This document shows positions 4,077 through 5,683 of a stretch of DNA of 6,093 nt, piece by piece. Position 1 is the stretch's first letter; each line of letters starts with the position of its first letter. The notes under the pieces were generated by a model, which saw only the letters and a list, made by a program, of their open reading frames with translations, was not told the DNA's origin and ran no database searches. The stretch comes from a virus (Duplodnaviria > Heunggongvirae > Uroviricota > Caudoviricetes), in IMG/VR virus record IMGVR_UViG_2695420380_000008. One strand, written 5' to 3'. The translations under genes and the position numbers were made by a program.

Positions 4077-4364
4077 TCAATCCTGCTCAAGATTGTAGAT
4101 GAGTTTATTCTTCAGCAAAAGCAGAAAACCAGCCTTAAAACCAATCTCTTTCAAAACCCGTAATGATGTGACAAATTCGTCCTCACGCAAAATAAAACCG
4201 TCCGTCAGAAGTCCATTACAAAAATAAAATAACACAGCACCGCTCTTCCTTTGTTGAGATTGCAAACATCTAATGCGGCAATGGCTGACAATCGCTCCAT
4301 TCTCAACGCGCACAGCATAGAGGCCATTTTCACTAAAAATTTCACGCAATTCTTCGATTTTCAT
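4077..4364 (-). CDS. hypothetical small prophage protein, 95 aa
   Basis: ORF with GGAAGGA SD-like sequence about 9 nt upstream of ATG 4364: MKIEELREIFSENGLYAVRVENGAIVSHCRIRCLQ... Occupies the slot between the hok terminator and the DUF1367 gene. No family recognised. Confidence 0.45.
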   Translation of the reverse strand: MKIEELREIFSENGLYAVRVENGAIVSHCRIRCLQSQQRKSGAVLFYFCNGLLTDGFILREDEFVTSLRVLKEIGFKAGFLLLLKNKLIYNLEQD

Positions 4365-4445
4365 CTTCAGAATCCTTCCAGATAAATAGCTCTCCCCTGT
4401 TCGGGGTCCATCCCTCTTCTCCCTGCGCGCTACTTAAGTGAGTCG

Positions 4446-4473
4446 ATTCTATCTGCGAAGGTGCGCGAATCAA
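4446..4473 (-). promoter_or_regulatory. candidate sigma70 promoter for the small ORF / DUF1367 / DUF1364 / Q operon
   Basis: Minus-strand TTGATT (-35, complement of 4468-4473), 16-nt spacer, TAGAAT (-10, complement of 4446-4451), about 80 nt upstream of ATG 4364 and just 3' of the hok terminator. Hexamer match only. Confidence 0.3.
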
Positions 4474-4493
4474 ATTCACCGGAAATAAACAAC

Positions 4494-4536
4494 AAAAAAC
4501 CCGCCGAAACGCTGAGAGATCACAGCGATGGGCGGG
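4494..4536 (-). terminator. intrinsic terminator at the 3' end of the hok transcript
   Basis: Minus-strand RNA CCCGCC-cau-CGCUG-ugaucucu-CAGCG-uuuc-GGCGGG followed by UUUUUU: outer stem 4500-4505/4531-4536, inner stem 4510-4514/4523-4527, U-run from the complement of A4494-A4499. Confidence 0.6.
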
Positions 4537-4541
4537 TTAAG

Positions 4542-4557
4542 TGCGGGTGCGTTGAGG
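4542..4557 (-). promoter_or_regulatory. candidate fbi-like 3' element of hok mRNA, complementary to the 5' end of the transcript
   Basis: Plus-strand tgcgggtgcgttgagg (4542-4557) is the inverted repeat of cctcaagcacccgca (4928-4942), 15 of 16 positions with a one-nucleotide bulge. Both lie inside the predicted hok transcript. Confidence 0.5.
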
Positions 4558-4613
4558 ATGCCTGACACATCAGAGGTGGGCGGGGATGGGATCAGCTCCC
4601 CGCCCGGTCACTC

Positions 4614-4769
4614 TTACTTCCTGGATTCGTAGTCTACGAAGACAGCGACCTCCGTCTGGCCGGTTCGGATTCGTACCTCACAGAGGTCTTTCCTCGTTAC
4701 CAGTGCCGTCACTATGACGGTTAAACAGATGACGATCAGGGCGATTAACATCGCCTTTTGCTGCTTCAT
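4614..4769 (-). CDS. hok: Hok/Gef family type I toxin (small membrane toxin), 51 aa
   Basis: ATG 4769..4767 with AAGGAG SD 9 nt upstream; MKQQKAMLIALIVICLTVIVTALVTRKDLCEVRIRTGQTEVAVFVDYESRK. Hydrophobic TMD followed by the conserved LVTRKDLCEV.IRTGQTEVAVF core of HokC/HokD-type toxins. Confidence 0.85.
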   Translation of the reverse strand: MKQQKAMLIALIVICLTVIVTALVTRKDLCEVRIRTGQTEVAVFVDYESRK

Positions 4770-4826
4770 AGCCTGCTTCTCCTTGCCTTTCGGCATGTAA
4801 GAGGCTAACCTACATGTGCAAAGCAT
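4614..4826 (-). CDS. mok: mok-like reading frame: in-frame N-terminal extension of hok, 70 aa
   Basis: Upstream in-frame ATG at 4826 gives MLCTCRLASYMPKGKEKQA-MKQQK..., the same pattern as chromosomal mokC/hokC (ML.TCR...K.KEK.AMKQ.K) as I recall it. Confidence 0.5.
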   Translation of the reverse strand: MLCTCRLASYMPKGKEKQAMKQQKAMLIALIVICLTVIVTALVTRKDLCEVRIRTGQTEVAVFVDYESRK

Positions 4827-4888
4827 GAAATTGGCCTCAGATTAATGTTAAGCGTCTTGCCGGACGCGTAATGTTAACTGGGGCTTTT
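4818..4888 (+). ncRNA. sok: candidate Sok-like antisense RNA covering the mok start codon and leader
   Basis: Plus-strand TTGCCT (4783-4788), 17-nt spacer, TAACCT (4806-4811), inside the mok 5' coding region in antisense. Downstream, gcctcag (4834-4840) pairs with ctggggc (4878-4884) enclosing an inner hairpin gcgtc/gacgc (4852-4856/4863-4867), followed by TTTT (4885-4888). Boundaries are approximate. Confidence 0.3.
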
Positions 4889-4927
4889 CTCTATCTGCCT
4901 TTTGGTGTTCATGCCTGAAGCAGATAG

Positions 4928-4942
4928 CCTCAAGCACCCGCA
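4928..4942 (-). promoter_or_regulatory. candidate tac-like 5' element of hok mRNA, pairing partner of 4542-4557
   Basis: See 4542-4557. Lies immediately downstream of the predicted hok transcription start. Confidence 0.5.
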
Positions 4943-4945
4943 GTC

Positions 4946-4975
4946 ATTCTACTTACCTCGCCAATATGAAATCAA
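4946..4975 (-). promoter_or_regulatory. candidate sigma70 promoter of the hok/mok transcript
   Basis: Minus-strand TTGATT (-35, complement of 4970-4975), 18-nt spacer, TAGAAT (-10, complement of 4946-4951). Predicted +1 near 4939, at the start of the tac-like element and about 110 nt upstream of the mok ATG. Confidence 0.4.
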
Positions 4976-4996
4976 TCAGAAAGGTGCCCCATAAAA

Positions 4997-5683
4997 TCAC
5001 TCCTTCTCTTCTTTACCGTAGTGGAGTTGACCAATTTTGATAAGAGGGCGTCCCTGAGATTTGCGGTGTAGATTGGTATCGCGCAGAGAATACACACAGC
5101 CACAATATTCCTGCTGATAGAATTTTTCGCGCTTGCTGATTTCAATCATACGGGACGAGCCGCCCTGCTTGCGCCAGTTATAATCCCAGTACACCATGCC
5201 CGGATAATGCGCGACGGCTCGCCGCCCACAGTCGTTAACCTGCTGCATATTTTTCCAGCGTGAAATGCCCAGTGAACTGCTGATCACACTGAAACCATTT
5301 TCAGCGGCGTACAGCGCTGTCCGCTCAAAACGCATGTCAAAACACATGGTGCAACGGATCCCTCGTTCGGGCTCCCATTCCATTCCTTTGGCTCGTTCAA
5401 ACCAGTTGTCTGTGTCGTAATCAGCATCAATAAACGGCACGCCGTGTTGTTCAGCAAAGCGAATATTCTCATCCTTACGAATTAAATACTCTTTCTGAGG
5501 ATGAATGTTCGGGTTGTAGAAAAAGATGGTGTAGTCGATTCCCGAGGCCTGAAGCGCCTCCATCACCTCACCGGAACATGGAGCACAGCAAGAGTGCAGT
5601 AGTAGTTTGTTTGCCCCGTTTGGGAGCTCCAATTTGGGCCGTTTGAAATCAGCAACTGTCATAAATATGTTTATTGGGGTCAT
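4997..5683 (-). CDS. queH: QueH-like epoxyqueuosine reductase (DUF208 family), 228 aa; start uncertain (ATG 5683 or 5662)
   Basis: [72 protein letters not shown]...[36 protein letters not shown]...[29 protein letters not shown] and YCGCVYS are the hallmark motifs of DUF208/QueH as I recall them. Neither candidate start has a clear SD. Confidence 0.7.

Follow-up and report, generated by a model that had tools for sequence, protein, structure and literature searches.

Does the inverted repeat that brackets the hok gene in this phage DNA join the two ends of the hok mRNA, as the 5' tac and 3' fbi elements do in characterized hok mRNAs? The initial annotation of the window (the whole 6,093-nucleotide stretch analyzed) had described a 15/16-nt repeat at 4542-4557 and 4928-4942, and on re-reading the repeat was present as described. 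The plus strand at 4542-4557 is TGCGGGTGCGTTGAGG, the reverse complement of 4928-4942 is TGCGGGTGCTTGAGG, and the two share 15 complementary positions with one unmatched G at 4551 of the plus strand, equivalent to a bulged C in the minus-strand RNA. The arms flank the hok/sok module and lie 386 bp apart. A gap-free repeat search recovered the two halves separately, one (I10) at 4542-4550 and 4934-4942 (9 nt, 100%) and the other (I4) at 4552-4564 and 4921-4933.

Complementarity of this kind could be a chance match in a G+C-rich region, an origin that the annotation had considered hard to credit. Among 300 dinucleotide-preserving shuffles of 4400-5050, the best inverted repeat typically had 9-11 matches, and a single shuffle contained one with at least 15 matches and at most one 1-nt bulge. 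That shuffle, whose repeat was even longer than the one observed, is the point in favor of chance, but it was just one of the 300. In a targeted search, the 122-nt 3' UTR was shuffled 20,000 times, and only 6 shuffles contained a full complement, with one bulge allowed, to transcript bases 1-12. A fortuitous match is already refuted by the compensatory conservation in 35 loci from 7 genera that we describe below, and we regard its probability as negligible.

Across the module, nucleotide identity with mokW/hokW/sokW of phages 933W and VT2-Sakai is 91%. At 99.9% identity, the window corresponds to prophages of two E. coli genomes, in which RefSeq labels the gene hokD. RefSeq marks the hokD coding sequence only; mok, sok, tac and fbi are unannotated. 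The neighbors (QueH, DUF1367, YbcO, a Q-like antiterminator, a tRNA array and a P21-type holin) are those usually seen in late regions of lambdoid prophages. On the minus strand of such a prophage, the locus forms an intact type I toxin-antitoxin system, hok/mok/sok, and is essentially an allele of the hokW/hokD-type prophage loci. The coding sequences and the features that define the predicted mRNA ends are as follows.

4946..4975, minus strand: predicted hok/mok promoter, TTGATT (4975-4970), 18-nt spacer, TAGAAT (4951-4946), from a consensus scan
4492..4939, minus strand: predicted full-length hok mRNA of about 448 nt, from +1 = G4939 to the terminator U-run
4928..4939, minus strand: predicted tac (translational activator element), GGGUGCUUGAGG, nt 1-12, 5' arm of the fold-back helix
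4614..4826, minus strand: mok reading frame, 70 aa, same frame as hok, which it includes, from the list of open reading frames
4614..4769, minus strand: hok toxin gene, 51 aa, MKQQKAMLIALIVICLTVIVTALVTRKDLCEVRIRTGQTEVAVFVDYESRK, Pfam PF01848
4545..4557, minus strand: predicted fbi (fold-back inhibitory element), CCUCAA-C-GCACCC, nt 383-395, bulged C at 4551
4492..4538, minus strand: predicted intrinsic terminator, stem AACCCGCC/GGCGGGUU, inner CGCUG/CAGCG stem and U-run, from repeat I13 and the fold

The Hok protein matched PF01848 (HOK_GEF) with E = 4.3e-23 and 81 bits against a cut-off of 22. Starting from 4826 and preceded by its own Shine-Dalgarno (SD) sequence, the 70-aa in-frame reading frame is the predicted mok, as in the annotated mokW; mokW and hokW are annotated with a common stop in VT2-Sakai. 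The mRNA leader (4939..4764, minus strand) scored 117 bits with the full Rfam model RF01794, whose gathering score is 59. This family carries the name sok, yet it matches the leader strand of the hok mRNA. The terminator hairpin spans 4538-4498 and the U-run ends at about 4492. A simple terminator scan, restricted to loops of at most 8 nt, overlooked this terminator because its loop is longer than 8 nt; the hairpin was seen in both the repeat search and the fold.

We placed the predicted +1 at G4939 from promoter spacing and homology: the -10 hexamer lies exactly 6 nt upstream of GGG[U/C]GCUU in all intact homologs and in R1-type hok, and the RF01794 match begins at that base too. The constant spacing supports G4939 as +1 and indicates that the three outer pairs of the DNA repeat (4940-4942 with 4542-4544) are probably untranscribed. 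Positions -1, -2 and -3 were pairable in 14, 14 and 28 of 35 homologs, and positions +1 to +3 in 35 of 35. A 15-bp helix that includes 4940-4942 was accordingly dropped as an RNA feature, its outer pairs being unconserved and upstream of the predicted +1. Because the predicted +1 is G4939, the RNA helix comprises 12 bp with a bulged C (4939-4928 with 4557-4545). The proposal that the mRNA ends pair over 15 bp with a bulge thus stood as to the pairing and the bulge but not as to the length. Similarly, the arms had been placed at the predicted transcript ends. The 5' arm does begin at the predicted +1, but fbi precedes the terminator hairpin, adjoining its 5' side as in plasmid R1, and is not at the extreme 3' end.

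We next give the elements of the leader and 3' UTR with which these arms would interact.

4911..4937, minus strand: predicted 5' metastable hairpin, nt 3-13 with 19-29, the minimum free-energy (MFE) fold of the first 30-50 nt
4880..4886, minus strand: predicted ucb (upstream complementary box, anti-SD), AAGCCCC, nt 54-60, from folding
4835..4838, minus strand: mok Shine-Dalgarno GAGG, nt 102-105, 8 nt before the mok AUG, from sequence
4801..4805, minus strand: predicted dcb (downstream complementary box), GCCUC, nt 135-139, from a constrained fold of the truncated RNA
4558..4570, minus strand: 3' arm (nt 370-382) of a predicted second long-range helix, partner nt 114-126 (4826-4814) at the mok start
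4578..4605, minus strand: G+C-rich hairpin after the hok stop, perfect 9-bp stem (I9), from an inverted-repeat search
4783..4888, plus strand: predicted sok antisense gene, candidate promoter TTGCCT (4783-4788), 17 nt, TAACCT (4806-4811), RNA about 4818-4888

The candidate sok promoter was placed by analogy with R1. The annotated sokW misc_RNA of VT2-Sakai has its aligned counterpart at plus-strand 4822-4888, a segment that folds as a terminator-like hairpin with a U-run, and the predicted sok RNA is complementary to mRNA nt 52-122, which contain ucb, the mok SD and the mok AUG. The G+C-rich hairpin after the hok stop is kept in all homologs and probably forms the 3' end of the processed mRNA; PMC9841398 describes what this hairpin does in R1.

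Folding the full transcript in silico had been suggested as a check on the fold-back, and the helix passed it. The 448-nt transcript (4939..4492) folded at -191.2 kcal/mol (z = -7.96 relative to shuffles). Both the MFE and the centroid structure paired nt 1-6 with 390-395 and nt 7-12 with 383-388, leaving C389 (window position 4551) bulged, and the tac-fbi pair probabilities were 0.97-1.0. Holding fbi single-stranded cost 15.3 kcal/mol. In the MFE structure the tac-fbi helix stacks on the second long-range helix, which covers the mok AUG. In the same full-length fold the mok SD is paired with nt 56-62 in the ucb region (G102, G104 and G105 paired; A103 unpaired).

The predicted open form pairs tac with ucb (nt 1-3 with 58-60 and nt 5-8 with 54-57, U4 bulged), so that ucb has the mok SD as its partner in the closed form and tac nt 1-3 and 5-8 in the open form. 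Tac-ucb pairing lay 13.2 kcal/mol above the MFE in the full-length RNA and just 1.6-1.9 kcal/mol above it once the RNA was cut 5' of fbi, the SD then pairing with dcb. The RNAfold MFE of the truncated RNA nevertheless stayed closed, with the metastable hairpin and ucb-SD pairing. As the open form is still 1.6-1.9 kcal/mol higher after truncation, the switch is less cleanly reproduced than for R1; at the prophage locus the energetic switch is partly reproduced in silico. In nascent RNA, the metastable hairpin was the MFE structure at 30-50 nt and the tac-ucb form at 70 nt.

As a positive control we folded an R1-type hok (L052) with the same software. It formed tac-fbi at full length and then tac-ucb and SD-dcb after truncation, matching the published R1 switch, and its numbering agrees with G4/C5/T6-A70 of PMC9841398. 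Two other candidates were unfit as R1 controls: in an R1-type plasmid match (L048) the leader is cut by IS150, and a Klebsiella match (L049) has an unrelated upstream region.

A genome scan with a single Hok protein query returned 47 loci, from which 35 distinct transcripts were aligned, from Escherichia, Shigella, Kluyvera, Citrobacter, Photorhabdus, Pantoea, Erwinia and Kalamiella (counted as 7 genera). We placed tac and fbi by leader alignment and the GC[A/G]CCC motif; RNAduplex on long flanks was rejected since it gave over-extended duplexes. The tac-fbi helix was present in the MFE structure of all 35 transcripts, each folded on its own. Across the 15 tac/fbi haplotypes that these contain, 411 of 420 cells paired (98%) in a register-aware count, which takes the best bulge size (0-2 nt) for each sequence and so leans toward pairing. 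An equivalent of the second long-range helix was found in the MFE of 31 of the 35 homologs; the MAFFT alignment is poor over this helix, with 59% paired.

Compensatory changes occurred at tac positions 4, 9, 10, 11 and 12. Over the 35 sequences, position 4 and its fbi partner were U-A in 21, C-G in 11, U·G in 2 and C·A in 1; position 11 was G-C in 25, G·U in 9 and A-U in 1; and position 12 was G-C in 22, A-U in 11 and G·U in 2. Positions 9 and 10 changed from G-C/A-U to U-A/G-C in two Erwinia loci. The arms are thus conserved in homologous loci with compensatory changes, the comparison that had been proposed as a further check on the fold-back. Because the C-G/A-U states belong largely to one Photorhabdus clade, the independent compensatory events in these 35 phylogenetically related sequences are few, roughly 4-6.

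Counted directly on the MAFFT alignment, 88.8% of cells paired, a figure that understates pairing because MAFFT shifts the bulge-less fbi by one column in the upper half-helix; the covariation score was reached by 0 of 500 shuffles. When the whole MFE structure of the window's transcript was projected on the 35-sequence alignment, 83.5% of cells paired, compared with about 41% in slid registers, and 36 pairs had changed on both sides.

These counts also speak to whether the repeat acts as DNA, either by marking the ends of a small mobile hok cassette as terminal inverted repeats or by offering a pair of sites for protein binding. The bracketing of the module by arms 386 bp apart is what such a role would have, and hok modules do occur in varied contexts (prophages, plasmids and chromosomes). 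However, wobble pairs in the homologs comprised 17 G·U and 1 A·C, an asymmetry that makes sense solely for the sense-strand RNA and therefore places the constraint on that RNA rather than on the DNA. In addition, conserved pairing ends exactly at the predicted +1, and the same 5' bases have two more conserved RNA partners. Nor do the borders of BLAST homology fit a cassette: homology continues past fbi through the terminator and ends about 40-65 nt beyond the 5' arm, not coincident with it. Both a DNA-level role, whose probability we would put close to nil, and chance are excluded by the imbalance of wobble pairs, the stop of conserved pairing at +1 and the shuffle results taken together.

Pairing within the RNA, the preferred reading, also accounts for the behavior of the other tac partners. 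The tac-ucb pairs (tac positions 1-3 and 5-8) were 99.6% paired and invariant in the 35 sequences. The metastable hairpin was paired in 96.4% of cells, with covariation at 3 pairs; tac position 4 and its partner in this hairpin were U-A in 21 sequences, C-G in 12 and U·G in 2. Position 4 therefore covaries with both its fbi and its metastable-hairpin partner. As these pairing counts show, tac bases that have three partners are frozen, and position 4, which is bulged in tac-ucb, is free, with both of its partners changing along with it. The pattern reads as the coupled-covariation signature known for the hok family. This signature was reportedly described by Gultyaev, Franch and Gerdes (1997, 2000), and the hok mechanism and family-level covariation, published in PMC9841398 and PMC3851714, are said to go back to Thisted 1995, Franch 1997 and Gultyaev 1997/2000.

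The presence of the helix in the MFE, the compensatory changes, the position at +1 and the alternative tac partners all agree with the original suggestion that the arms are the 5' tac and 3' fbi of the hok mRNA. We put at roughly 90% the probability that they are tac (nt 1-12) and fbi (nt 383-395) of an intact prophage hok/mok/sok locus in which fold-back silences the full-length mRNA. In the modeled full-length mRNA, tac-fbi (12 bp and the bulged C) would stack on the helix over the mok start codon while ucb would sequester the mok SD. By inference from R1, an mRNA folded in this way would be stable, untranslatable and refractory to Sok. During transcription, the metastable hairpin (nt 3-13 with 19-29) would hold tac until fbi is made. 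By analogy with R1, slow 3' exonucleolytic trimming would then remove the terminator hairpin and fbi, the freed tac would pair with ucb, and the mok SD would be released or paired to dcb, as R1-type hok is likewise predicted to do. Either mok and hok would be translated, or Sok would bind and RNase III decay would follow. The fold-back, 3' processing and capture of tac by ucb are described for R1 in PMC9841398 and PMC3851714, and Sok-dependent RNase III cleavage of the truncated mRNA has been shown for R1 (PMC9841398); for hokW, RNase III seemingly has a minor role (PMC8621323).

A different function for the same helix would be mainly that of a clamp of the 5' and 3' ends against RNases (RNase E entry at the 5' end and 3' exonucleases), with sequestration of the SD by ucb independent of it. 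The mok SD is indeed still paired with ucb in the predicted truncated RNA that lacks fbi, and PMC9841398 ascribes several loss-of-function mutations in the 3' UTR to RNase susceptibility. Yet removal of fbi cuts the tac-ucb penalty from 13.2 to 1.6-1.9 kcal/mol, and a switching role is favored by the pattern of change in tac, where bases shared with ucb are invariant and the single base left bulged in tac-ucb covaries. Moreover, both roles coexist in R1 (PMC9841398). We consider it quite unlikely that the helix is mainly a clamp.

At this locus the promoter, tac, ucb, the mok SD and reading frame, dcb, the sok promoter and RNA, the hok reading frame, the G+C-rich hairpin, fbi and the terminator are all intact. 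Every defining feature of the hok/sok family that sequence can test is present: toxin, leader and Sok, mok, tac-fbi and the alternative pairings. This completeness bears on whether the locus is an evolutionary relic, like several hok loci of E. coli K-12, whose arms are conserved by recency and whose fold-back regulates nothing. Decay of this kind is found among the homologs: one locus (L005) has a broken tac and an intact fbi, K-12-type hokD (L006, L034 and L040) keeps fbi without any tac, and the 3' UTR of K-12 hokC (L014) is interrupted by an insertion. Furthermore, chromosomal hok loci assayed by others gave no post-segregational killing (bioRxiv 10.1101/2025.08.07.668861), so an intact structure is no proof of biological activity. 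Set against this are the intact elements of the prophage locus, the cross-genus compensatory changes, which show selection on pairing, and the closest relative, hokW-sokW, which is a functional toxin-antitoxin pair (PMC8621323). A relic is, in our judgment, very improbable; neither it nor the clamp accounts for the coupled covariation and the complete set of elements as well as fold-back silencing does. The prophage hok copy is a complete, probably regulated toxin-antitoxin module and not a decayed remnant.

The two decayed K-12 types differ from the prophage locus, which is complete. K-12-type hokD (L006) sits behind relBE, stripped of promoter, tac, mok and sok and left with fbi alone; K-12 hokC (L014) carries its insertion after the G+C-rich hairpin. 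At the protein level the prophage Hok is about 90% identical to E. coli HokD (relF) and 78% identical to HokC (gef). Escherichia hokC loci have the same tac and an fbi with one C-to-U change that gives a G·U pair.

The nearest characterized system is hokW-mokW-sokW of the Stx2 phages 933W and VT2-Sakai (the Sp5 prophage of E. coli O157:H7). About 91% nucleotide identity extends over the whole module, mok is in frame with hok, the sok RNA is at the equivalent place, the host element is again a lambdoid prophage, and tac (GGGUGCUUGAGG) and fbi (CCUCAACGCACCC) are identical. The two loci differ in the C-terminus of the toxin (...VDYESEK in HokW, ...VDYESRK here), in the neighboring genes (a YgiW/YdeI-like gene there, QueH and DUF1367 here) and past fbi, where the hokW sequence has no counterpart of the long terminator hairpin. 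Experiments have established hokW-sokW as a type I toxin-antitoxin system that aids phage release; the northern blots of that study, which makes no mention of tac or fbi, show smaller, uncharacterized hokW RNA species, which are indirect support for 3' processing at the prophage locus (PMC8621323).

Plasmid R1 hok/sok (parB) shares with the prophage locus the order of elements (tac at +1, metastable hairpin, ucb, mok SD, dcb, hok, G+C-rich hairpin, fbi and terminator), tac-fbi in the full-length MFE, tac-ucb with one bulged base, and a second long-range helix over the mok start region (PMC9841398 and our folds). Differences are confined to details. Unlike the prophage locus, R1 has a tac (GGCGCUU...) that is one G shorter, with C-G where the prophage locus has U-A; its predicted helix is 7 bp, a mismatch and 2 bp rather than 12 bp with a 1-nt bulge; and its mok is out of the hok frame. 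R1 is a plasmid system rather than a prophage one, and its Hok is only 41% identical. RNAfold also flips R1 cleanly to tac-ucb after truncation, whereas the prophage forms are near-isoenergetic.

The tac/fbi fold-back and its coupled covariation have been known for the hok family since the 1990s, and the conservation of the element in chromosomal and prophage hok loci is already established, so that the finding here is real but ordinary. Our data extend the known covariation to more genera and add no new principle. They are useful for annotation and for work on hokW-like loci in prophage induction.

The form of the helix varies among homologs. Prophage loci of the Escherichia/Kluyvera/Citrobacter type have a 12-bp helix whose halves are separated by one conserved bulged base, a pyrimidine or A; the helix of Photorhabdus and Pantoea is bulge-less, and that of R1 is short and mismatched. 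We think it unlikely that this difference is a tuning device rather than a product of neutral drift. If it were, it could set a different rate of, or trigger for, 3' processing and unfolding, suited to prophage induction and not to plasmid loss; Hok release on prophage induction has been reported for hokW (PMC8621323).

Several of the homologous loci recovered in the genome scan with the Hok protein were decayed relatives of the window's hok/mok/sok locus. The three K-12-type hokD copies, which are linked to relBE and sited behind relE (L006, L034 and L040), had kept the fbi arm, the 3' arm of the hok mRNA fold-back helix, together with the terminator, and had lost the promoter, the 5' arm tac, mok and sok. 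At another locus (L005), fbi was intact and tac was partly deleted, while in a K-12-type hokC (L014) foreign sequence was inserted directly 3' of the GC hairpin. Near-identical fragments of E. coli-type hok were also present in non-enterobacterial assemblies, namely those of Acinetobacter idrijaensis (L013), Xanthomonas pisi (L018) and a MAG (L047). The contigs that carry them are very short (275-2995 bp), and these fragments look like contamination rather than genuine occurrences.

Because mok (4614-4826, minus strand) shares the frame of hok within the window, its 70-aa product, Mok, would consist of Hok with an N-terminal extension. The annotation of mokW, from the Stx2 phages 933W and VT2-Sakai, agrees with this in-frame arrangement; by contrast, in plasmid R1 the mok frame differs from that of hok. 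The Tyr47 codon of hok, UAC, is followed by GAA (4629-4634, minus strand), and this UACGAA context was unchanged in all 35 aligned hok loci. TadA A-to-I editing, which recodes Tyr to Cys, has been described at such UACGAA-type sites in hokB-E (2026 preprint, 10.1101/2025.08.07.668861). Another UACGAA lies at 4675-4670 in a different frame.

The surroundings of the locus include the following features.

4446-4473, minus strand: second promoter-like site (TTGATT, 16 nt, TAGAAT), immediately downstream of the hok terminator
659-1580: first copy of a tandem duplication; tRNA-Gly(tcc), Thr(tgt), Arg(tct) and Met(cat), minus strand
1617-2538: second copy; the same four tRNAs, minus strand
4997-5683, minus strand: epoxyqueuosine reductase QueH homologue (PF02677, E = 2e-65)

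The hexamers of the second promoter-like site are identical to those of the hok promoter, and the site lies upstream of a 95-aa ORF (4364..4077) without a Pfam match. The tRNA duplication has a period of 958 bp. Its junction holds two N runs of 31 nt each (1550-1580 and 1618-1648), and this leaves room for either a genuine duplication or an artefact of assembly or masking. The prophage-encoded QueH homologue, directly upstream of hok/sok and adjoining the phage tRNA array, may represent a phage-borne tRNA-modification function.
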